Translations under genes and position numbers: made by a program
Source of the DNA: Felixounavirus LF82P2
Length of the DNA: 64,000 bases
Sequence record: OZ035741.1
Direction: 5' to 3' (one strand)
Part shown: positions 4,620 to 47,713 of the stretch, one piece after another
Numbering within the stretch: the first letter of the stretch is position 1
Layout: each line of letters opens with the position of its first letter
Notes under the pieces: model-generated
Told to the model about the DNA's origin: nothing
Databases searched by the model: none
The model's input: only the letters and a program-made list of their open reading frames with translations

Positions 4620-4949
4620 TTAATCTGCCAACCTTAAATTAAAATTAACACCAAATTTTTCACATACTTCCAACATATACTCAAGGGAGACGTTACCAGT
4701 GAGATGGATTATGTTGGATACACGAGCCTGAGAGATACCACAAATTTTAGCAACTTGCTCTTGAGAAAGACCTCTGGATTTAATCTCTCTCTTAAAACGA
4801 TGTGCAACGAAATCTCTCATTTCATCTACATCCATTGGACAAATATAACTCTCCATTTCAGCCTCTCTATCAGCCTCCCAATCATCTTGTGGAGCATAAG
4901 GGTCAAAAATCTCATTCATCTTTCTTCTTCCGTTTGCGTGAAGTGTCAA
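4620..4949 (-). CDS. helix-turn-helix DNA-binding protein (XRE-like)
   Basis: LSQEQVAKICGISQARVSNI helix-turn-helix-like segment. Confidence 0.45.
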   Translation of the reverse strand: MTLHANGRRKMNEIFDPYAPQDDWEADREAEMESYICPMDVDEMRDFVAHRFKREIKSRGLSQEQVAKICGISQARVSNIIHLTGNVSLEYMLEVCEKFGVNFNLRLAD

Positions 4950-6102: not shown

Positions 6103-7202
6103 TATTCATAATCCCTAATAACTAGCCCAACAGGGAACTGTAAAGAACCCTTACGAGTCATCTTCTGGAACTGAACCGTTAAAGGCTTCCCGATAAACTC
6201 TTCAGGATGCTCAGCAAGATACTGTTTCTTCTCGTGTGTAGTTTTCCATGAAACATCTACAAAGACGTTAGGAAGAGTCTCTACAACGAACTTACCATGA
6301 CCACGCTTATCGGTCTTTACACCAGTCACTTTAAACTCTTCAGTGTGCATCTTCTTGTGCTTAATCAAGAAGTATGAACGGTGACAACACTCATAGAAGG
6401 AGTCTTCAGAGATTGAACGGTACATTGCACCTTCAAACTTAGCTTCAACCCACTTATCATGAGCTTCATCAAACTCTTCCCAAGAATTTACACGGATAGT
6501 CTGTACAGGAACAACTCTACAGGTATCCCCAAGCTCAACAATAGGTGAGTTATCAATAACTTCACGACGCTCAGGCCAAGATTTTGAATTGTCACAGATA
6601 TCATACCAGTAGAATTTAAGAAGGTGACGGTCTGGATTGTCAGCATTCTTAATCATAGATACAATATCTTCTAAGTCCCAACCATGAGCATAAATCTCTC
6701 CGTCAAAGTCTTCAACTTGCGGATGTAATTTAAGCAACAAAAGCAAATCTGGGATTAGTTCTGTTGGAACGTTGTAAACAGTATTCTCACGAGAATAAGC
6801 TGTGAAACTGACTGCATCAGCATCTCTTGAAATTCTACAACGGACACCATCAAGTTTTGGTTGAGCATCAGCAGGGAACTTCAGATACTTTGCATGACTA
6901 ACCTTTGCAGCATCATGAGCAAGCTGTACACCTACCTTCTCAGTATTCTGTGCAGACTCTTTTGTGTAAGCATAACCTTTGCGGTCAACTTGCTTTTTAT
7001 ACTTAGCAGCAACTTCAAAGAGGGCTTGCTGTTCAGCGTTACGCTCATTCTTTTTACCGATGTTTTTAGGCTCTGCTGTATACTCTTCAAACATCATCTT
7101 GCCATTTTCTTTACCGTAGGTTGTAATAACTTTGTCACCTACAGCAACGCATGACCAGACGTTGAAGGAACCGTCTTTATTTTGTTTGTACAGAATTGTC
7201 AT
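6102..7202 (-). CDS. ATP-dependent DNA ligase
   Basis: 366 aa; KxDG adenylation motif (PKLDGVRC) and nucleotidyltransferase-like layout. Confidence 0.7.
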   Translation of the reverse strand: MTILYKQNKDGSFNVWSCVAVGDKVITTYGKENGKMMFEEYTAEPKNIGKKNERNAEQQALFEVAAKYKKQVDRKGYAYTKESAQNTEKVGVQLAHDAAKVSHAKYLKFPADAQPKLDGVRCRISRDADAVSFTAYSRENTVYNVPTELIPDLLLLLKLHPQVEDFDGEIYAHGWDLEDIVSMIKNADNPDRHLLKFYWYDICDNSKSWPERREVIDNSPIVELGDTCRVVPVQTIRVNSWEEFDEAHDKWVEAKFEGAMYRSISEDSFYECCHRSYFLIKHKKMHTEEFKVTGVKTDKRGHGKFVVETLPNVFVDVSWKTTHEKKQYLAEHPEEFIGKPLTVQFQKMTRKGSLQFPVGLVIRDYE

Positions 7203-8307: not shown

Positions 8308-8871
8308 TCAACTTAGTTTTGCAAACTCTCCGTGGAGTTTAATAGCAGCTTCACAGTAAGCTTTATGGGCTTCTTCTGGTGTGTCAAACATACCAAGATG
8401 ATAGTTTTTACCTTGTAAACGTATCATTGCTCGAAACCTTTTACTTATCTTCTGTACACCTTTTGGCAACCCAGATGGGGACTTTCTTGACCGATTGCAA
8501 GAGTTTTGTGAAGCTGTACAAACCCTTAAATTCAAGTACCTATTGTCCCAACCGTCCCCATTCTTATGGTCAACCTGTAAGTTTTTATCAGGCAGGTATC
8601 CATCCACATATAGTATTGCTAGACGGTTAGCTTGGTAGCCTTTACCATCAAGCAATAACTGAACAGACTTGTGACCATCTGTGTTTATCCTATAATTTCC
8701 TGCCTTTTTACCTCCAAAACGAGAGTTGAAGTTCTTATTGCCTCGTGATACCGGCTCTCTAAACTTCCAAGTAAAGACCCCTGTTTCGGGGTCGTAGTCC
8801 AATAGCTCCTTAAGACGAATTTCTGTAATCATTTCAACACCATCAATGTACTTCCAACCAGCTCTTACCAA
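8308..8871 (-). CDS. HNH homing endonuclease (AP2-like DNA-binding domain)
   Basis: GVFTW motif, HKNGDGWDNRYLNLRVCTASQN HNH core; paralogous to ORF 18423-18947. Confidence 0.65.
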   Translation of the reverse strand: MVRAGWKYIDGVEMITEIRLKELLDYDPETGVFTWKFREPVSRGNKNFNSRFGGKKAGNYRINTDGHKSVQLLLDGKGYQANRLAILYVDGYLPDKNLQVDHKNGDGWDNRYLNLRVCTASQNSCNRSRKSPSGLPKGVQKISKRFRAMIRLQGKNYHLGMFDTPEEAHKAYCEAAIKLHGEFAKLS

Positions 8872-11572: not shown

Positions 11573-11612
11573 ACATTACTGCAAAAAATTATAAAAAGCA
11601 AGTTGACAATGC

Positions 11613-11642
11613 ACTTGACAAGGTGTTAATCTTTGCGAAGTG
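11613..11642 (+). promoter_or_regulatory. candidate promoter with conserved ACTTGACAAGGTG box
   Basis: 13-mer ACTTGACAAGGTG (contains TTGACA) in divergent intergenic region; same 13-mer at 27958 and 56007. Confidence 0.4.
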
Positions 11643-11799
11643 GGTTTTTACTTAAAAGGTTACTTAACAGTTTAACTATACAGATACTTTAAAACTCTTA
11701 AAAGATTATTTAATAGCTTTTAAAAAGCTTTAAAGTATAACGTATAGAATACGTTAAGATAAAAGATTAAAACTTAATAGTTACTTAAAAGAGGCTTAC

Positions 11800-16502: not shown

Positions 16503-17360
16503 ATGTCTAAAGTTGTTAAAATGAAAGCTCCGGTAGAGAAGTACAACGGTACTGAACGTCAAACTCTGCGTTACCTGCTGAAAGATGTCTGGTTTTATTA
16601 CCTGAACACTTCACCACGTCCGGGTAAAGGTAAATCTATTGACAAGAAATTCCCAGGAAAAGATTGTAACTACAGCGTATCAATTCTGGCAGAAGACGGT
16701 AACAAACTCTTTAAAGAGTTTACTAAGTCTAAGAAGAACCCAGAGGGTTGGGATAAAGTTACTACTGAAGCAGTTGATGCAGATGACTTCGAAGAGAAGT
16801 TTGGCTGCAAACCACCATTTGAAGCAGACACTTACTACATCTTGAAAGTAAGTCGTGCAGCAGCTTATAAAGATGGTGCTGTATGGACAGCTAAACAGTC
16901 ATTCCCTGTAATGCTGATTGAAGAAGTGAATGGTAAGCGTGTAGCTGTTAAGCAGCCGATGAAGAAAATCAAAGCTCAAGCATCTGATAAACATGAAGAT
17001 GACAAGAACTATGATGTAATTCATCCAGATATCGCAGTTGGTAACGGTTCTTTTGGTAGTGTGATTCTTTCTACTCACTTCTACACTTTTGAGAACAATG
17101 TTCTGACAAAACCTATTCAGGAACAGTTTATCATCGATACCCTTGTACCTTACACTGGTGGTAACGGTGCTAATGGTGAACCTGAACTGGATGAAGATGA
17201 ACTGGCTATGCTTGGTCTTGATGGTGTCGAAGATAACGGTGAAATCACTGAAGAAGACGCAACAGACCATAAATCTTCGAATGATTCTGATGATGGTGAT
17301 GATGAAGATTTGCCAGACCCAGATGACGAAGAAGATGAAGACTTCGATACAGAAGACTAA
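16503..17360 (+). CDS. single-stranded DNA-binding protein (putative)
   Basis: Strongly acidic C-terminal tail (DDGDDEDLPDPDDEEDEDFDTED); sits between helicase and 5'-3' exonuclease. Confidence 0.4.
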   Translation: MSKVVKMKAPVEKYNGTERQTLRYLLKDVWFYYLNTSPRPGKGKSIDKKFPGKDCNYSVSILAEDGNKLFKEFTKSKKNPEGWDKVTTEAVDADDFEEKFGCKPPFEADTYYILKVSRAAAYKDGAVWTAKQSFPVMLIEEVNGKRVAVKQPMKKIKAQASDKHEDDKNYDVIHPDIAVGNGSFGSVILSTHFYTFENNVLTKPIQEQFIIDTLVPYTGGNGANGEPELDEDELAMLGLDGVEDNGEITEEDATDHKSSNDSDDGDDEDLPDPDDEEDEDFDTED

Positions 17361-17378
17361 TCTCTAAAAGTTACTTTA

Positions 17379-17407
17379 AAGCCCTGTACTTAGTATGGGG
17401 CTTTTTC
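17379..17407 (+). terminator. rho-independent terminator
   Basis: AGCCC..GGGGCT hairpin followed by TTTTT. Confidence 0.45.
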
Positions 17408-17422
17408 ATATGGAGAGCCATA

Positions 17423-18469
17423 ATGGAGAAGTACACATTAACAAAACTTCCCGATTCAGTTACACATGTTTTTATTGACTCTGACAGCATTGCCTATAAA
17501 GGTGCTTGTGTAGTTGAGAAAGCAAAATATAAATACGTCAATAAACTCACAGCAGAAGAATCTGAACCATTTGACAATGCGAAAGATGCTGCAAGATGGT
17601 TAGCAGACCAGAGAATCCTTGTGGAAGAACTTGGCCTGACATTTGATGAAGATGAATGGGAAAGACAGACTTGGAAAGAAGCTAAGAGTGAAAAAGAAGC
17701 TATCATGGCTACTCAACAGGTGCTTCAGGAATGGCTTAAGATTGTTGGTAAAGAAAGAACTTGGGTAGGCTATTTAACAGAGAAAGGTGTGCATAAACAT
17801 AAAGACATTAAAGGTCTTGAGCACCAATATCAAGGGAACCGTAAAGATGCTGTCACACCAACACACTTAGTCGCTTGTCGTGAATACCTTCTGTCAAGAC
17901 CAGAGTTCAAACTCTTAAAGGGAGGATTCGAAGCCGATTCAATCGTAATTGCTAAAGCTGAAAAGATGGGTAAGAAAGCTGCTCTTATGAGTATTGACAA
18001 AGACCTTCGACAAGCTGAAGGAACTTATTGTATTGATATGACTTATGAAAAGTCACCACTAATTTTTATCGCTGATAATAATGTTGGTGATATCTGGGAT
18101 TGTCCTATCAAATCAAAACCAAAAGCTGCAAAAACAGTTGGTGTAGGTTTTAAATTCTTGTGTTATCAGGCTGTTGCTGGAGATAATGCAGACAACTACT
18201 TCGGCCTAAAAGGTGCTGGTAAAGTAGCTGTGATGAATGCTTTAGATGGTAAAGAGACCTACAAAGAGTGTCTTGACGCTATCTATGAACTCTATGCTAA
18301 AAAAGACTCTTATACCTATGTGTCATGGGATGGACAGACTGTTACAAAGACACCGTTAGAGTTAATGGAACAGCATTTCTTCCTAGCTTATCAAGAGCGA
18401 AATAAATCAGATATTTTTTCATTTGAAAAGTATGGTTGGACTCCAAATGTTGACTCAGCAGATACTTAA
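17423..18469 (+). CDS. 5'-3' exonuclease / flap endonuclease
   Basis: H3TH-like GDNADNYFGLKGAGKVA motif and acidic residues near N-terminus. Confidence 0.55.
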   Translation: MEKYTLTKLPDSVTHVFIDSDSIAYKGACVVEKAKYKYVNKLTAEESEPFDNAKDAARWLADQRILVEELGLTFDEDEWERQTWKEAKSEKEAIMATQQVLQEWLKIVGKERTWVGYLTEKGVHKHKDIKGLEHQYQGNRKDAVTPTHLVACREYLLSRPEFKLLKGGFEADSIVIAKAEKMGKKAALMSIDKDLRQAEGTYCIDMTYEKSPLIFIADNNVGDIWDCPIKSKPKAAKTVGVGFKFLCYQAVAGDNADNYFGLKGAGKVAVMNALDGKETYKECLDAIYELYAKKDSYTYVSWDGQTVTKTPLELMEQHFFLAYQERNKSDIFSFEKYGWTPNVDSADT

Positions 18470-41963: not shown

Positions 41964-42749
41964 ATGGGTATTGTAAAAATCATCAATGGTGATATCTTTG
42001 CTGCATTTGATAAAGGTAAGTTTGACATCATTGGTCATGGTTGTAACTGCATGAACCTAATGGGCGCAGGTATCGCTGACAAGATTTCTAAACTTTACCC
42101 AAAAGCATATGAGACCGATACAGAAGTTTATCTCTATGCAGGTGGTATAGGTCACAAACCCTGTGAGAATTTACTAGGTAATTTCTCTGTAGCACGCTTA
42201 AAACAAGGTCGTATAGCTAACCTTTACACTCAGCTTAAGACTGGTAAAGATGCCCGATACAGTGCTTTAGAGTCATCTTTGAAACAGCTTAACAGATACT
42301 GTGAAGTTAATCAGTTGAAGAAAGTTGGTTTACCTATGATTGGTGCAGGTATCGGTGGACTTGACCCTCAAGCCATCACAGTTATCATCAATCAGGTGAT
42401 GAAGAGTGTAGATGTTTATCTGTATGTCTATGAAGGCGAGATGTACCACAAGTTACGCTCAGGTTGGAAGAACTACTGTGAACCAGAATACTTTGCAGGT
42501 GTAGCAGTGTTCACAGATAACGCAGTTACCCTCTTCAGACGAAGAAAAGGTAAGATACATCAAAGTAACCCTCCGGTTGAAAAGATGTCTCTAAGTAACG
42601 CTCTAGTTACCCACCTGTCAAAGAGCAATCACAGAATTGCTGTAACATTTGGTAGTGATGCAGAAGCTTATATCTATGCAAGAACTGATGAGGATATCGA
42701 GGCAATCTTCTCTTCACCAGAAGTTACCTTCTTAGACGCAAAGAACTAA
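41964..42749 (+). CDS. macro-domain protein (ADP-ribose binding/processing)
   Basis: N-terminal IINGDIF..GHGCNCMNLMGAGIA resembles macro-domain core. Confidence 0.45.
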   Translation: MGIVKIINGDIFAAFDKGKFDIIGHGCNCMNLMGAGIADKISKLYPKAYETDTEVYLYAGGIGHKPCENLLGNFSVARLKQGRIANLYTQLKTGKDARYSALESSLKQLNRYCEVNQLKKVGLPMIGAGIGGLDPQAITVIINQVMKSVDVYLYVYEGEMYHKLRSGWKNYCEPEYFAGVAVFTDNAVTLFRRRKGKIHQSNPPVEKMSLSNALVTHLSKSNHRIAVTFGSDAEAYIYARTDEDIEAIFSSPEVTFLDAKN

Positions 42750-42817
42750 GAAACTCTGTAGGATATTCACAATAGCCTAAGCCTTTCTTATCTGGTAAAT
42801 TTTTCAGGTAAGGAGGG

Positions 42818-43000
42818 CTTTTTCATTTTAGAATTGTGCAGGTAGAGTTCTGTAGAGAAATCTGTAGAGAGAATTTTGAACTCCAAAGAGAAAATTCATT
42901 TTCAAACTGTGCAGGTAATCTCCAAAGAGCTTTTTCATTTTCAAAACGTGCAGACCCCGCTCAGGTCGGGCAAGAAAAATCATTTTAGAATTGTGCAGGT
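42818..43000. repeat. four direct repeats of ~25 bp (TTTTCATTTTAGAATTGTGCAGGTA consensus)
   Basis: Copies at about 42818, 42893, 42931, 42975, irregular spacing; followed by C-rich tract 43021-43056. Confidence 0.6.
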
Positions 43001-43179
43001 AGGTTTTTATAGACAGCCAGCCCAACCCCTCTCCCCCTCTTACTCCCCCTCTCCCCAAAAGTCAAGAGAAAAATTTGTAGCGGATTGAAAAATAATTCTT
43101 GATTTGCGTTCTGTTTTGTGGTAGTCGTGCGCACCCGTTTCATTACAGTTTTGCCAAAAATATTTTTAAAATTTTTATT

Positions 43180-43208
43180 GACTCTTTGAACGTGGTTATC
43201 TAATATTT
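43180..43208 (+). promoter_or_regulatory. sigma70-like promoter (TTGACT-17-TAATAT)
   Basis: Immediately upstream of conserved leader hairpin. Confidence 0.45.
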
Positions 43209-43210
43209 AC

Positions 43211-43269
43211 ATCAACGGGGAGGGAATGACCTTCCCCACTAAATAAAATCCTAAACTGGAGATTCAAAA
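43211..43269 (+). promoter_or_regulatory. conserved leader module type A (hairpin + RBS)
   Basis: CATCAACGGGGAGGGAATGACCTTCCCCACTAAATAAA..CCTAAACTGGAGATTCAAAAATG; near-identical copies end at 44259, 45525, 45855. Confidence 0.6.
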
Positions 43270-43458
43270 ATGGCATCAAGAAAAATTAAAGTTGGCGATG
43301 AGGTTAACATTAAGCACGAATACTCTTACAAAATGCTAACTATACGCTCTTATAAGGTTTATCAGGTGGAAGCTATCCACAAAGATAATACTTTTTCCTT
43401 AAAAGGGTATAGCGAACGTTTCCCTGCTGAACTCTTTGAGAAATGGAGCGCGAAATAA
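43270..43458 (+). CDS. hypothetical small protein (cassette ORF)
   Basis: Starts right after type A leader. Confidence 0.45.
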   Translation: MASRKIKVGDEVNIKHEYSYKMLTIRSYKVYQVEAIHKDNTFSLKGYSERFPAELFEKWSAK

Positions 43459-43664
43459 TGCTTTACAGTCGCGAATTGATGGTTACAACTAACGTTAACA
43501 CAAAGGCAAAACGTTTTTACATGCAAATCTGTGGCGTATGGTCCAGAATATCAGAAGCTGACTATTGCAACTATGTAGAAACAGCTATAAACTCTAATTG
43601 CTACCTTACAAGAAATACTAAAAAATTTACGAGACAGACAGCAATTTACTACTACGATAAATAA
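43443..43664 (+). CDS. hypothetical small protein
   Basis: 73 aa ORF overlapping previous stop. Confidence 0.35.
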   Translation: MEREIMLYSRELMVTTNVNTKAKRFYMQICGVWSRISEADYCNYVETAINSNCYLTRNTKKFTRQTAIYYYDK

Positions 43665-43666
43665 AA

Positions 43667-43753
43667 AGTACTTTACAAGGGGCTTATAGTTCGATAAAGT
43701 AAGCCCCAGATAAAGAGCTTTACCACTCAATCCTAAATTGGAGAACTTAAAAA
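43667..43753 (+). promoter_or_regulatory. conserved leader module type B (terminator-like hairpin + RBS)
   Basis: AGTACTTTACAAGGGGCTT..AAGCCCCAGATAAAGAGCTTTACCACTCAATCCTAAATTGGAGA..ATG; second copy 44508-44593. Confidence 0.55.
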
Positions 43754-44158
43754 ATGGCTATTAATAACCGTGAATTATCAACCTTAAAAGCACGTTTGAC
43801 CGTTAATCGAATCAACATTATGACATCATCAGCGCCTGATGAGACATTGCACAACATTATCGGAAAGATTCAAAGCGTTATTTTAGACGTTGAAAACGTA
43901 AAAAATTCATTGGCTGACGTTGCAGCAGGTATCACGCTAGACGGTGCGCAATATGAAATGTCCGACATGTTAGGCAAATCTAAGGTAATGAATAAAGAGT
44001 TAGATTTGAAAATGTTCCGATTTGCTGTTAAAGTGTGGCTATCTGTCGAGTATGATGCTAACTTTGCAATCGCTGACTTTTTCGCCACTTGGTTGCAGCG
44101 TAATTTGACTAATCATGACTTCCGTAATATCTGTGATGCAATTTATGCAGAACTTTAA
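43754..44158 (+). CDS. hypothetical protein (cassette ORF)
   Basis: Preceded by type B leader. Confidence 0.45.
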   Translation: MAINNRELSTLKARLTVNRINIMTSSAPDETLHNIIGKIQSVILDVENVKNSLADVAAGITLDGAQYEMSDMLGKSKVMNKELDLKMFRFAVKVWLSVEYDANFAIADFFATWLQRNLTNHDFRNICDAIYAEL

Positions 44159-44166
44159 AAAATTTT

Positions 44167-44259
44167 GTTGACACTGATTTTTAGATAGGTTAAATTACAC
44201 ATCAACGGGGAGGGAATGACCTTCCCCACTAAATAAAGTCCTAAACTGGAGATTCTAAA
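44167..44259 (+). promoter_or_regulatory. promoter (TTGACA-17-TAAATT) plus leader module type A
   Basis: Hairpin GGGGAGGGAATGACCTTCCCC at 44207-44227; GGAG RBS. Confidence 0.55.
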
Positions 44260-44508
44260 ATGATGAATTTTTTAAATATCCCTGATACTTGCCGACTGTT
44301 GACGCAACCAGAAAATTTAGGCAAACCTTTCCTGTACCATATGCCAGACAATACACCAAAAACATATAGCTACACGGTTAACCGCTTTACGGGTTACGCT
44401 GCAAAAAACGGTTACAAGGTTACTACTCAAAAAGTAACACTATTTACAAATATCGAAGAGCTTCCAACAATCGCTGTAAAACTAATATTTACGAAGAAGA
44501 CGCAATAA
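44260..44508 (+). CDS. hypothetical small protein (cassette ORF)
   Basis: Preceded by type A leader. Confidence 0.45.
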   Translation: MMNFLNIPDTCRLLTQPENLGKPFLYHMPDNTPKTYSYTVNRFTGYAAKNGYKVTTQKVTLFTNIEELPTIAVKLIFTKKTQ

Positions 44509-44593
44509 AGTACTTTACAGGGGGCTTGGAAGTTGATATCTTAAGCCCCAGATAAAGAGCTTTACCACTAAATCCTAAACTGGAGATTCAAAA
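44508..44593 (+). promoter_or_regulatory. conserved leader module type B
   Basis: Hairpin GGGGCTTGGAAGTTGATATCTTAAGCCCC then AGATAAAGAGCTTTACCACTAAATCCTAAACTGGAGATTCAAAAATG. Confidence 0.55.
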
Positions 44594-45136
44594 ATGAAAT
44601 GTTTTCACGGTACTACTCAAGAAAATTTCCTCAACCTGATTAATAACGGTGATAAACCATCAGGCGCATGGAATTGTTCGGATATGGACGGCAATTTTTA
44701 CGTGTATCCAGAAAATAAAATCTATGGCGACGATGAGGAAGAAATAATCTCTGAAGGTATCCAGCAAGCTCTTGGCAATGCCACTATAACGGCAGCTTTT
44801 CAGATGAAAACTCAAAATATTGTTATCTTGGAACTTGATATTCCAGAGGATGAGTTGAATGATGATTATTCTTGTGATAATATGTCGAGCGTGGCAAGTT
44901 TTACAGAGTATTTTGATATAAGCTGGATTAAAAAGGTTTACATCACTGAATTTAATGCCATGTTTTCACCTTTTTGTCTTCCTTCATTGGATAACCCAAA
45001 TTTAAATTATCTTGATGAGTCTCTGGAGCTTCTTGCTAAAAGTGTTCAACAGTCGGACAGTATTCAGGTTTTTTGTGACATCATGGATACACTAACAGGA
45101 AACATCACAGAAGAAGATTTAAAGAGCTTTTTCTAA
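44594..45136 (+). CDS. hypothetical protein (cassette ORF)
   Basis: Preceded by type B leader; 180 aa. Confidence 0.45.
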   Translation: MKCFHGTTQENFLNLINNGDKPSGAWNCSDMDGNFYVYPENKIYGDDEEEIISEGIQQALGNATITAAFQMKTQNIVILELDIPEDELNDDYSCDNMSSVASFTEYFDISWIKKVYITEFNAMFSPFCLPSLDNPNLNYLDESLELLAKSVQQSDSIQVFCDIMDTLTGNITEEDLKSFF

Positions 45137-45202: not shown

Positions 45203-45436
45203 ATGCTAACAACCATTTATCTCATCCTCTCAATTTGTAATGGCCATTCATGTGATTTTAAAGGGCTTGAGGAGTTCACAGGAAGTAAAGAAAATGCTAT
45301 TCAAGTTTGCCAGATAGCAAGGCAAGACTACCCCGCAAGTGATGATATTCAGTGTTACTTTAAGACAGAAGATGACGACGGAATCTATTTCGATAGTGTT
45401 GATGGTCAGTATGAAATTATCATTGAAAAAGACTAG
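45203..45436 (+). CDS. hypothetical small protein
   Basis: 77 aa ORF. Confidence 0.4.
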   Translation: MLTTIYLILSICNGHSCDFKGLEEFTGSKENAIQVCQIARQDYPASDDIQCYFKTEDDDGIYFDSVDGQYEIIIEKD

Positions 45437-45460
45437 ACAAGCCTGATAAAAGTCTGTAAA

Positions 45461-45525
45461 TTGTCAATCAACGGGGAGGGAATGACCTTCCCCACTAAAT
45501 AAAGTCCTAAACTGGAGTTATCAAG
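45461..45525 (+). promoter_or_regulatory. leader module type A
   Basis: Hairpin GGGGAGGGAATGACCTTCCCC 45473-45493; GGAG RBS. Confidence 0.55.
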
Positions 45526-45789
45526 ATGGAAAACGTAGAATTAACCACACTTTTACAAATTGCAACCGACAAAGAAAACGTAGCTTTATTTCACCGCATC
45601 GAAAGTGATTTGTTCAATGGTGAAATCATCAAAGAGTCTTACGAGGTTGTTGGATTCAAAGATGGTAAAACATTTGGATTCTTTGACCTCGAAAAAGGCA
45701 ACGCTGTTACAAAATATGATGTTTTATCTTGTGAGATTCTTACAAAATACAACGAAAAAAGGCTTGCAACATACGCCAATATGCAGTAA
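45526..45789 (+). CDS. hypothetical small protein (cassette ORF)
   Basis: Preceded by type A leader. Confidence 0.45.
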   Translation: MENVELTTLLQIATDKENVALFHRIESDLFNGEIIKESYEVVGFKDGKTFGFFDLEKGNAVTKYDVLSCEILTKYNEKRLATYANMQ

Positions 45790-45796
45790 ATTACTA

Positions 45797-45855
45797 ATCA
45801 ACGGGAGGCGATAACCTCCCCACTAAATAAAACCCTTAAACTAGGAGATTCAAAA
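45797..45855 (+). promoter_or_regulatory. leader module type A (variant hairpin)
   Basis: Hairpin GGGAGGCGATAACCTCCC with compensatory changes; same downstream ACTAAATAAA..GGAGATTCAAAAATG. Confidence 0.5.
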
Positions 45856-46104
45856 ATGGCAACTATCCGCGCTACTGTTAACGAGTTCGGTTTTTCCTCT
45901 CTGGATGTTAAATTTGACATTGCAGGCACTGATAACGCCTTTGAAATGGTGAAAGGTCTTATCAGTCAGACCATCAAAGACTATAATCCTTCTGATGAGT
46001 TCTGGAAAGAAACAAAACAGGAAGTTCTCAAAGAGGGTTATTCTTATCACTATTGGGGTGAAAAAATTGTCTCTCTGTACTACGACAAAGAAGGCACTAA
46101 CTAA
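45856..46104 (+). CDS. hypothetical small protein (cassette ORF)
   Basis: Preceded by type A leader variant. Confidence 0.45.
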   Translation: MATIRATVNEFGFSSLDVKFDIAGTDNAFEMVKGLISQTIKDYNPSDEFWKETKQEVLKEGYSYHYWGEKIVSLYYDKEGTN

Positions 46105-46143
46105 ACGCCGCAGCGGGGCTAAATAGCCCCAGATACCTTTATA

Positions 46144-46167
46144 CAGCCCCTCACAGGGGCTTTTTTA
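46144..46167 (+). terminator. rho-independent terminator
   Basis: AGCCCCTCACAGGGGCT followed by TTTTTT. Confidence 0.5.
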
Positions 46168-47713
46168 CGTCTATCCAATCCTTATACAATCCCTTTCCTC
46201 ACCTTTTCAGAATCTTATCAGACCTTAAAAGCAATAACTCTATAGTCTACTCTATAGCCTTTTATCAAATCAACTTAAATATAAGCCAATAACCCCAGAA
46301 AGGGGATGGCCCACTTAAACGCTCTATAAAGCGCTATAACAACCTTATCAATCTAACTTAAGGGATTGCATTAACTCACCCTTAAAAGCTCTTTACAGGG
46401 CTTTATAGAGGCTTAAAAGAATCTTATAAGGTTATGAGCTTTATTGTCTCGTTAGTATCTTGTGAATAGTTAAACAATCCCCTTGATAGTCACTAAAAAG
46501 TATGTTATAGGGGCTATAAAGTTACTTCAAAGTTACGTAAAAGGGGCTATAAAGTTACGTAAATGCTAGCCCCCTTAACATTTTCTTAACAATTTCTTAA
46601 CAATCCCTACATAGTTATGCTTTTAAGGCACTTGTTAGCAACTTGTTAGTCCCTTGTTAAATCTCTGTTAAGACCACGTAAAAGCCTTGTAAGAGTCTTT
46701 GACATAGCCTTAAAAGCTCCTGTAAAGCCCTATAAAGAGCTATCTGTACAGTTGGGGGGATAGATACTAGGAAGAGGCTTAAAAGGGCTTATAAAGAGCT
46801 ATAGAGAGCTTTTAAGAGGTATGTTTAAGGAATCACTAAGAAAGGGAAGGGAACGATAAGAAAAGAGATAGTGACCGTGTTAATAGCTTGTTAAAAAGAT
46901 TAGACACTTGTTAGAAACTTGTTAATTATCTTAACAAAATAACTCTTAAAAATTAACTTGTTAGCTCTTGTTAGTCATCTGTTAAGAGACTATAAAGACC
47001 ATGTATCGACTGTTAAGAACTTGTTACAGCTTTGTTAGTTCTGTTAAGAGTCTGTTAAGACCTCTGAAGAGATGTTAAGAGGATGTAATAGTTGTTAAGA
47101 GATTGTTAATGATATTTTAAAATTCTGAAAAGGGGGGTGTTACAGGGATGTTAAGGGCTACCAAGCAGATATACATCTTCTACAGATATTTTTCAGTTCC
47201 TTCAGAGACCCTAAAAAATGACTTGATAGTCCTATTTTATAAAAATTTTAAGATTCTGAATAATTACCTATACAGCCTTTTAAAAATACAGGTAATAACA
47301 GGCTTATAAGATACCTTGTTAGTACCGTGTTAGACCTTGTGAGATAAGGTCTGTAAAGATATTCCTGTTAAGTTTGTTAAAACAGTCTATATAGAGGCTT
47401 AGTAGCACCTAGTGAACACCTATAGAGAGTATCATAGCTTACCTAGAGATTAAGAGGTGTATAGGAGCTTCTAAGAGGGTATAGAGAGAGGGTTAAGGTG
47501 ATTGTATAGGTTGTTAAGAAGGCTTGTTAGAGGGCTAGTTAGAAGGGTTATACAGAGGTCTATTAAGACCACTAGATAGATACTAAGATACTATATAGTA
47601 CTATATAACTATATAGAGAGTAAGATTAAGAAGGTTGTTAAGAAGGGTAGATATTTTGTTCACATATGATGGTGACCCAGAGGTTGGGACAACCGATAAA
47701 ATTTTATAAAAGT

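Follow-up and report, generated by a model that had tools for sequence, protein, structure and literature searches.

What is the role of the four direct repeats that lie in a non-coding gap of a Felix O1-like phage genome? The gap is found at positions 42750-43269 of a 64,000-nucleotide (nt) stretch of the Felixounavirus LF82P2 record OZ035741.1, and this whole stretch is referred to below as the window. An earlier description of the window, made from the letters alone and called here the sequence-only reading, pointed out four direct copies of a unit of about 25 bp together with an unusual poly-C tract, and regarded such clustered repeats as typical of replication origins or multi-site operators. 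According to our analysis, the repeats appear to form a conserved iteron-like binding array that was previously undescribed in the searchable literature, and they are very probably the binding sites of one sequence-specific DNA-binding protein. Among the functions that such an array may have, an iteron-type replication origin or an origin-associated complex is our first choice, with a probability of about 35%.

The window belongs to a Felixounavirus, i.e., a Felix O1-like myovirus: in megablast searches, positions 42000-44000 were 99.5% identical to Felixounavirus LF82P5 and matched 232 phage records, and the 521-nt gap used as the sole query was 100% identical to LF82P5 and matched 288 records. 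The gap is non-coding and extends over 520 bp, from the stop of a macro-domain gene at 42749 to the next ATG at 43270, in agreement with the estimate of about 500 bp in the sequence-only reading. The macro-domain gene is the final gene of a long rightward operon (rIIA-to-macro). Scans predicted an intrinsic terminator and a strong early promoter within the gap, and the repeats sit between them.

Each repeat contains a 19-bp two-part motif, TCATTT[T/C]-N6-GTGCA[G/T], which is asymmetric, has no dyad symmetry and occurs in four direct copies of a single orientation. The pattern TCATTTTNNAANNGTGCAG matched exactly at 42823, 42896, 42935 and 42980, giving a spacing of 73, 39 and 45 nt; elsewhere in the 64 kb, a single unrelated match with two mismatches was found, where 0.41 were expected. 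None of 100 shuffled sequences attained the five matches of the window, so that the repeats are far above chance. The first copy, R1 (42823-42841, plus strand), reads TCATTTTAGAATTGTGCAG and is followed by GTA, as is R4 (42980-42998, plus strand), which has the same sequence. R2 (42896-42914, plus strand) reads TCATTTTCAAACTGTGCAG, is likewise followed by GTA and is preceded by ACTCCAAAGAG-AAAAT, and R3 (42935-42953, plus strand) reads TCATTTTCAAAACGTGCAG, is followed by ACC and represents a distinct subtype. Taken as 25-mers, the units occupy 42820-42844, 42893-42917, 42932-42956 and 42977-43001, within 1-2 nt of where they had been placed before, and the 25-mer of R3 ends in GTGCAGACC, not in GTGCAGGTA. 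The earlier description also has to be corrected in that the T-rich start of R1 doubles as the U-tail of the intrinsic terminator at 42779-42820. The long spacer between R1 and R2 carries two tandem, partly conserved 12-nt units with CTGTAGAG (42844-42867, plus strand); AAATCTGTAGAGA occurs once in the genome, and a sequence related to the tandem units, AAAT[T/C]TGTAG, is found at about 43070. These units may be a second motif or the leftover of a decayed repeat.

With up to one mismatch allowed, no further copy of the repeat motif was found in the window or in the remaining 20 kb of the close relative LF82P5, and the genome of Erwinia phage phiEa21-4 contains only two weak matches outside its array. 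Three neighbouring elements, namely CTGTAGAG, the 3' arm of the terminator and a conserved inverted repeat referred to here as block B, are likewise unique in the genome. The uniqueness of the motif indicates a one-per-genome cis site rather than a family of promoters or terminators. When 185,579 species genomes of bacteria and archaea were scanned for a two-repeat pattern, no array was found in Enterobacterales, which argues against a host chromosomal counterpart; the 19 matches were unrelated repeat arrays in metagenome-assembled genomes. In a scan of viral contigs with the pattern, every match except one belonged to Ounavirinae. The exception, an unrelated 10-kb viral contig (L048, IMGVR_UViG_3300018080_002802), has two identical 50-bp direct repeats at about 6254-6321, each with TCATTTTAACATAGTGCAG, upstream of a promoter-like site, and this match is probably due to chance.

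For the comparison with relatives, we used 29 IMG/VR loci found via the macro protein, GenBank records, the phage phiEa21-4 and the viral contigs from the pattern scan. All of the Ounavirinae lineages sampled carried the array at this place, i.e., Felixounavirus, Suspvirus, Mooglevirus-like genomes, the Kolesnikvirus phiEa21-4 and a divergent contig (L056/L094), and in nearly all of these relatives the macro gene lies directly upstream of the repeats. Felixounavirus, Suspvirus and Mooglevirus-like genomes carry four copies spaced at about 73-77, 39-41 and 45 nt, and phiEa21-4 carries four copies that are spaced at 37, 37 and 39 nt and end in GTGCAT. The more distant L056/L094 contig has four good copies and one degenerate copy, and Si3-type genomes have three copies, with both the upstream gene and the terminator being different. 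The repeat cores were identical to the window at 47-52 of 52 positions, the adjacent macro gene being 59-75% identical at the DNA level; the central N6 matched the window at 11-21 of 24 positions, and the spacers went down to 24-54% identity. The repeats are thus the best-conserved bases of the region across at least four genera, and the array is the best-conserved non-coding sequence that was found in it. The sequence-only reading had proposed a conservation check in related phages, and the repeats turned out to be both present and conserved there.

The individual copies also retain their own character. R3 never has the GTA tail, and the 5-nt tract preceding TCATTT alternates between T-rich and A-rich; R3 reads CGTGCAG-A in most Felixounavirus sequences and TGTGCAG-A in all those of Mooglevirus-like phages and in a few that are Felixounavirus-like. 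Since the subtype of each copy has persisted from genus to genus, the similarity of the repeats is due to purifying selection rather than to homogenisation among them. No mention of the repeats was found in the searchable literature, including the Felix O1 genome paper, the Felixounavirus comparative paper and the Bas63 PhageMaP and Bas63 cryo-EM studies; the genome paper listed only exact repeats of at least 24 bp (PMC3185647).

The conservation of an array of this kind could reflect a coding sequence, and an open reading frame at 42828-43058 on the minus strand, with the motif YLHxLKM, might encode a small repeat protein. The frame is open from R4 to R1 in Felixounavirus, where the spacings of 39 and 45 nt are multiples of three, and hypothetical proteins have been annotated here in several GenBank records. 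However, spacings of 41 nt in Mooglevirus-like genomes, 43 nt in L021 and 37/37 nt in Kolesnikvirus interrupt it, and its start depends on the allele of the neighbouring segment: one allele offers a TTG, the other a stop and then an internal ATG. Synonymous changes are absent from the conserved "codons" although the neighbouring gene is 59-75% identical, and the changes in N6 are non-synonymous, so that we consider such a protein extremely improbable. Coding on either strand was rejected on the same grounds: the spacings of 37, 41, 43, 73, 75 and 77 nt break frames, and the cores have no synonymous-type variation.

A function at the RNA level is quite improbable as well. The gap might give rise to a non-coding RNA or protein sponge from read-through or antisense transcripts, or its C-rich part might act as a Rho-loading (rut) tract that backs up the terminator. 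The plus strand at 43007-43068 does have rut composition, being C-rich and nearly G-free (28 C and 6 G in 60 nt), and C-rich, G-poor stretches occur at the same place in phiEa21-4 and L056. In addition, a weak leftward promoter-like sequence, TTGACT-17-TAAGAG, can be read in both alleles of the segment, but its putative -10 element lacks the final T and was not passed by the promoter scan. A strong terminator precedes the repeats and the next promoter comes only after them, and the alternative allele has a G-rich first half on the plus strand, which is a poor fit to a rut site. RNAalifold gave a covariation term of -0.84 with 1/50 compensatory pairs, i.e., essentially no covariation beyond the terminator hairpin, and no Rfam family was found in the gap, the sole match being a chance CRISPR-DR (E 0.42) inside the macro gene. 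Two rigid conserved blocks with free bases between them fit the recognition of double-stranded DNA instead. The repeats were also rejected as sigma-70 promoters: R1 alone reaches 8/12 (TTTTCA-17-TAGAGT), R2-R4 have no -35 or -10 element, none of the four appeared in the promoter scan, and the motif is upstream of no other gene.

The arrangement of two rigid blocks one helical turn apart, with free bases between them, a single orientation and no dyad, is what would be expected of the footprint of a protein that reads two successive major grooves. Each site would be two-part and asymmetric, with TCATTT[T/C] and GTGCA[G/T] about one helical turn apart and a 5-nt A- or T-tract before them. As all the sites face the same way, the binder should sit head-to-tail, either as a monomer or with two DNA-reading modules. 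This protein is most likely encoded by the phage. A similar asymmetric two-part site is the "marbox" of the monomeric regulators MarA, SoxS and Rob, which have two helix-turn-helix (HTH) motifs, and it is mentioned here as an analogy only. Like the present site, which reads CTGCAC-N6-AAAATGA on the minus strand, the marbox is about 20 bp long and non-palindromic and has GCAC and A-rich elements about one helical turn apart. The spacing is, however, 6 nt here versus 8 nt in the marbox, no promoter stands at the distance that such a site requires, and no AraC-family protein was detected in the phage.

The sequence-only reading suggested the HTH protein at 4620-4949 as a candidate binder. Its gene (4620-4946) does encode a genuine HTH_3 protein according to Pfam and was matched in 260 records, nearly all of them of Felixounavirus, Suspvirus or Mooglevirus and none of an Erwinia phage. 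However, phiEa21-4 retains four repeats and has no homologue of this protein (tblastn against the whole genome, E > 3), and the HTH_3 protein was therefore rejected as the binder.

The host initiator DnaA could in principle bind the GTGCA half of each repeat, in the way it does at oriC and has been proposed to do at the T5 injection-stop region. Positions 4-9 of the box consensus TTWTNCACA correspond to the conserved core TGCACA, and on the minus strand of phiEa21-4 every repeat has a DnaA box with one mismatch (CTATGCACA in three repeats and TTATGCACG in one), with CTATGCACA also present in L056. By contrast, the window and all Felixounavirus, Suspvirus and Mooglevirus sequences read ACCTGCACA, with three mismatches at positions 1-3, so that none of their repeats is within one mismatch of the box. 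The TCATTT half has no DnaA-box counterpart, and the Enterobacterales genomes contain no comparable arrays. No DnaA boxes (up to one mismatch), IHF consensus or GATC were found in this phage, and we regard binding by DnaA as very unlikely.

The array is embedded in a series of other elements. The gap opens with a predicted rho-independent terminator (42779-42830, plus strand), which consists of a 17-pair hairpin at 42779-42820 and a T-tail overlapping the start of R1; a rho-independent terminator is annotated at the same place in the relatives ASO1A and KhF3. Its 5' arm has been rebuilt in Mooglevirus-like and Si3-type genomes, with the 3' arm CAGGTAAGGAGGGC being kept. We further observed that the 5' arm was swapped at least two times for an unrelated but still pairing sequence (in L029, L031, L033, L046 and L070), whereas the 3' arm, CAGGTAAGG[A/T/C]GG[G/C]C, which includes a perfect Shine-Dalgarno-like TAAGGAGG, was kept. 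The replacement of one arm and the retention of the other suggest that the 3' arm seems to be under constraint beyond hairpin formation.

The repeats are followed by a variable 60-nt segment (42999-43058, plus strand) that exists as two alleles of equal length, and the window carries the C-rich one. This allele includes the poly-C tract CCCCTCTCCCCCTCTTACTCCCCCTCTCCCC (43026-43056), which reads GGGGAGAGGGGGAGTAAGAGGGGGAGAGGGG on the minus strand and there has a canonical G-quadruplex motif, the only (G3+N1-7)x4 motif in the window and the remaining 20 kb of LF82P5 (about 84 kb). Of all 40-mers in the window, the one at the tract has the highest C content (27/40; mean 7.4, standard deviation 2.5). 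In direct reading it is also a perfect homopurine/homopyrimidine mirror repeat of the H-DNA type, with 13-nt arms around CTTAC. It thereby has the sequence features of a G-quadruplex and of H-DNA, both of which are predicted structures.

The C-rich allele was present in 12 of the 23 unique sequences, and an unrelated allele with a G-rich start in the other 11; the latter (L025, L034, L012 and others) has G-runs on the plus strand at its start (GGTGGGTGCAGGTGGGG) and an extra GTGCAGGT half-site. The poly-C tract described by the sequence-only reading is therefore a true compositional outlier at 43026-43056 but not a universal one. Because the C-rich allele is shared by all of the three enterobacterial genera and can faintly be made out in phiEa21-4, it is probably ancestral. 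The segment measures 60 nt in nearly all Felixounavirus, 50 nt in one of them and 54-56 nt in other genera. Since the poly-C was replaced in about half of the relatives with the length being kept, its sequence is dispensable and the spacing appears to be constrained.

Several independent public assemblies end within 43020-43165, at or just past the poly-C tract (loci L009, L010, L030 and L003); they comprise the Andreotti record and at least three IMG/VR contigs of 51-89 kb from sample 3300045988, and one of them stops within the tract. These ends likely result from dropout at the G-quadruplex-forming or C-rich mirror repeat and from graph branching where conserved DNA joins the variable array. 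A genome terminus at the poly-C tract was considered and rejected: the Andreotti record starts at window position 43020, but it is a collapsed 83-kb assembly with its other end in the cassette repeats. IMG/VR contigs that end 300-415 nt from the macro gene are assembly breaks, and the true terminal repeat (581 bp in phage D4) maps to 46569-47162.

Downstream of the variable segment, block B (43059-43105) contains an inverted repeat formed by AGTCAAGA (43060-43067) and TCTTGATT (43098-43105); its second arm, TCTTGA[T/C]T, reads TCTTGACT in Mooglevirus-like genomes. After another variable stretch there is a 24-nt pure A/T block, AAAAATATTTTTAAAATTTTTATT (43156-43179), with a local stability z of about 2.8-3.1. 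Its core, AAAATATTTTTAAAA, is invariant in Felixounavirus, Suspvirus and Mooglevirus-like sequences, and the block could be an UP element or the local easiest-melting region. It abuts the -35 element of the predicted sigma-70 early promoter of the first accessory-gene cassette (TTGACT-17-TAATAT; 43178-43206, plus strand), and a sigma-70 promoter is annotated at the end of the gap in ASO1A. Further downstream are a stem-loop at 43217-43237, a ribosome-binding site (RBS) and the ATG at 43270. Between R4 and the -35 element, a distance of 193-199 bp is maintained in three genera.

This layout of direct repeats, a G/C-rich segment, an A/T block and a promoter resembles that of iteron origins. Theta plasmid and lambdoid origins of this type (R6K gamma, RK2 oriV, pSC101, P1 oriR and lambda ori) have three to seven repeats of 17-22 bp in the same orientation, which are bound head-to-tail by a monomeric two-domain initiator, and an A/T-rich unwinding block and a promoter are found close by; an A/T block and a promoter are present here too. 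A G/C-rich segment is sometimes present in iteron origins, as in RK2 oriV. Iterons are recognised as at least three direct repeats of about 17-22 bp in the same orientation that are conserved in relatives, and the four 19-bp repeats correspond to this description. Their copy number is flexible, with three in Si3-type genomes and about five in L056, which is usual for iterons.

A precedent in a virulent myovirus is oriE of T4, where a cluster of short direct repeats lies in a non-coding stretch beside a host-type early promoter and small early genes; these repeats are conserved at syntenic positions in related phages, and their function was proposed from their resemblance to plasmid origins (PMC3016281). 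In contrast to the evenly spaced 12-mers of T4, the present repeats are 19 bp long, two-part and irregularly spaced at 37-77 bp, and family searches detected no homologue of repEA/repEB. We have chosen the origin among the possible functions because the array occurs once per genome in a single orientation, its copy number is flexible, its layout is that described above and T4 oriE provides a precedent. In such an origin, the bound array would bend the DNA and thereby stress its neighbours, i.e., the G/C tract with its propensity for structure, the inverted repeat of block B and the 24-bp A/T block. The strong promoter for host RNA polymerase at 43178 would contribute either by transcriptional activation or by supplying a primer to the T7-like primase-helicase and the polymerase.

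A number of observations weigh against an origin at this place. No Rep, DnaA or O-like initiator is annotated in D4 or phiEa21-4, and the annotation of D4 names just one transcriptional regulator. Sequence-family searches of 20 proteins against Pfam and PHROGs identified only HTH_3, a macro domain and an HNH endonuclease. For 17 unknown proteins (8 from the cassettes and 9 from the replication module), Pfam gave nothing, and a sequence search of the Protein Data Bank with 3 of these 17 gave no match. Thus, unlike in the known iteron origins, no gene of the Rep, pi, TrfA or O type was found in the genome or beside the repeats, these searches detected no DNA-binding protein besides HTH_3, and the gene downstream of the repeats differs between the genera, leaving no conserved partner neighbour.

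The geometry and the physical properties of the locus point in the same direction. The pitch of the repeats is irregular (73/39/45 in the window, 75-77/39-41/45 in Mooglevirus-like genomes and 37/37/39 in phiEa21-4) and not the approximately 22 bp of classical iterons; helical phasing is seen in some pairs only, 73 bp being about 7 turns and 84 bp being 8 turns. In further contrast to iteron origins, the A/T block is short (24 bp) and located 155 bp from the last repeat, and there is no DnaA or IHF consensus. This block has a z of about 3, and much less stable DNA is found at about 11.69-11.79 kb, the minimum of the window, which is nearly equalled at 47.2-47.7 kb; the repeat region ranks only about 200th. 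The cumulative GC-skew has its minimum at about 12 kb, and rightward of the repeats the skew falls and does not rise. About half of the relatives have another sequence in place of the poly-C tract. Finally, a link of the T4 oriE iterons themselves to origin activity was never established (PMC3016281). Overall, the part of the sequence-only reading that saw here a cluster of binding sites is upheld; of its two options, an origin is only slightly favoured over a multi-site operator, and several hallmarks of an origin (a Rep-like protein, regular spacing and a skew switch) were not found.

An alternative origin candidate is the divergent intergenic region at 11573-11799, which lies between the DNA polymerase gene on the minus strand and the replisome operon on the plus strand. 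It has the least stable 100 bp of the 64 kb (z = 4.6), includes a 27-nt near-palindrome and coincides with the minimum of the cumulative GC-skew. A setting between a polymerase gene and a replisome operon is of the kind favoured by T4 origins (PMC3016281). Just downstream of the DNA polymerase gene, there is also a gene resembling homing endonucleases, with HNH_3 and AP2 domains (8308-8868, minus strand).

The main rival to the origin is an operator or insulator array for a phage regulator or a host nucleoid protein, which we hold to be possible, if tentatively so. Such an array could stop transcripts of the rIIA-to-macro operon from running on, or it could switch the first early promoter, one conceivable means being a loop to block B and the promoter at a distance of about 195 bp, and it would contribute to the early-to-middle shift of Felix O1. 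The array lies exactly between the terminator and the first strong early promoter, and the conserved distance from R4 to the promoter, along with the conserved length of the variable segment, suggests a fixed geometry. The conserved inverted repeat of block B and the invariant A/T palindrome upstream of the -35 element would fit an operator as well. Moreover, according to the Felix O1 genome paper, temporal regulation in this phage is not understood, and neither an RNA polymerase of the phage nor a sigma-modifying protein is known (PMC3185647). On the other hand, the sites are 180-355 bp upstream of the -35 element and do not overlap the promoter, and the other cassette promoters have no such sites, so that, of the many early promoters, no more than one would be under control. 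The sole recognisable regulator, HTH_3 at 4620-4946, is missing from the repeat-bearing phiEa21-4. Finally, HTH dimers of the Cro/C1 type usually bind palindromes, whereas the sites found here are asymmetric direct repeats.

A cis site tied to the genome ends is a less favoured and, in our estimation, unlikely explanation. The array would then serve packaging, concatemer processing or DNA entry, either as an accessory terminase or end-binding site or as a T5-like injection stop. From the array to the right terminal repeat, the distance is 3.6 kb in the window and about 7 kb in D4, and all that lies between them is a set of small early genes that are transcribed toward the end. In L056, the repeats directly abut eight TTAACA repeats, the motif with which the terminal-repeat region is packed in Felixounavirus and Kolesnikvirus. 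The T5 injection-stop region is likewise a conserved, repeat-rich and untranslated block near one end, beside the pre-early genes, a set of small genes for host takeover, and it is more conserved than the surrounding open reading frames (bioRxiv 10.1101/866236). However, the region in T5 comprises 1.2 kb, lies within a 10-kb terminal repeat and contains inverted repeats, palindromes and paired DnaA boxes, whereas the present array consists of four direct repeats outside a 0.6-kb terminal repeat and has no DnaA boxes. Moreover, Ounavirinae are not known to inject their DNA in two steps.

The position of the genome ends is a further argument against such a site. PhageTerm indicated direct terminal repeats for D4 (PMC11737134), and the 581-bp terminal repeat of D4 corresponds by homology to window positions 46569-47162, so that the array is not at the physical ends. 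Short terminal repeats have been independently reported from PhageTerm analyses, including one of 613 bp in another FelixO1-like phage and those of Kolesnikviruses (PMC6454146, PMC11984208). The distance of the array to the end varies from about 4 to 7 kb depending on the strain, the clustering of public contig ends at the array reflects assembly breaks, and the dense repeat arrays of the terminal region itself are better terminase candidates.

These arrays occupy about 1.5 kb of non-coding DNA (46126-47660) around the short direct terminal repeat, which homology to D4 puts at about 46569-47162. The region contains TTAACA/TGTTAA units with an 11-bp period: three TTAACA units stand at the left boundary of the repeat, followed by at least 15 inverted copies. 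Repeats of the CTTAAAAG/CTATAAAG type and two of the least stable stretches of the window are also found there. TTAACA is clustered in phiEa21-4 as well, at 17045-17832, and the units resemble the TTATTAACA "DnaA*" boxes described for the T5 terminal repeat. The region at 46126-47660 is likely a packaging or end-processing site.

Another scenario, which we regard as doubtful, is that the array is the recognition site of a binder with a not-yet-recognised fold and represents a new kind of origin or genome-organising site for all Ounavirinae. In one version, the four head-to-tail sites, the G-quadruplex/H-DNA tract and the early promoter used by the host polymerase would start replication without a Rep-like initiator. 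In the other, the array would be an entry checkpoint that parts the end-proximal host-takeover DNA from the remaining genome, as a Felix O1 counterpart of the first-step transfer of T5.

The gene upstream of the array (41964-42749, plus strand; 261 amino acids) is annotated as "phosphatase," resembles Tk.4 of T4 and matches Pfam Macro (3.9e-07) and phrog_335. Its N-terminal Macro (ADP-ribose-binding) domain is followed by about 120 residues without assigned function. In contig L056, the macro part (148 amino acids) stands alone and is preceded by a gene similar to DNA adenine methylases. The macro-domain gene could have an anti-defence function. Downstream of the gap, the cassette array is built of two recurring modules of promoter, stem-loop and RBS before unrelated small genes, with type 1 at 43178-43270, 44168-44262, 45434-45526 and 45770-45857 and type 2 at 43672-43745 and 44514-44594. 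The gene content of the cassettes varies between strains, and one of the modules matches the 57-bp repeat of the Felix O1 paper. The array resembles the hyperplastic regions of T4-type phages, in which cassettes of promoter-early-stem-loop type are shuffled. Two records assigned to other hosts, GU169904 (Staphylococcus phage SA1) and MG065664 (Campylobacter phage A132), carry the Felixounavirus region at 88-91% identity and are most likely chimeric or contaminated assemblies.

Felix O1-type phages belong to the classical typing phages of Salmonella, and wide use is made of them in biocontrol, in diagnostics and in cocktails for phage therapy. The coincidence of the poly-C/G-quadruplex tract with breaks in public assemblies is useful to those who assemble these genomes. 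The accessory-gene array is a natural site for payloads or deletions, and a construct that removes or splits the region at 42.8-43.2 kb might cripple the phage. The array may provide an easily mutated, one-per-genome handle on the replication origin, a temporal switch or the DNA entry of Felix O1-type phages.

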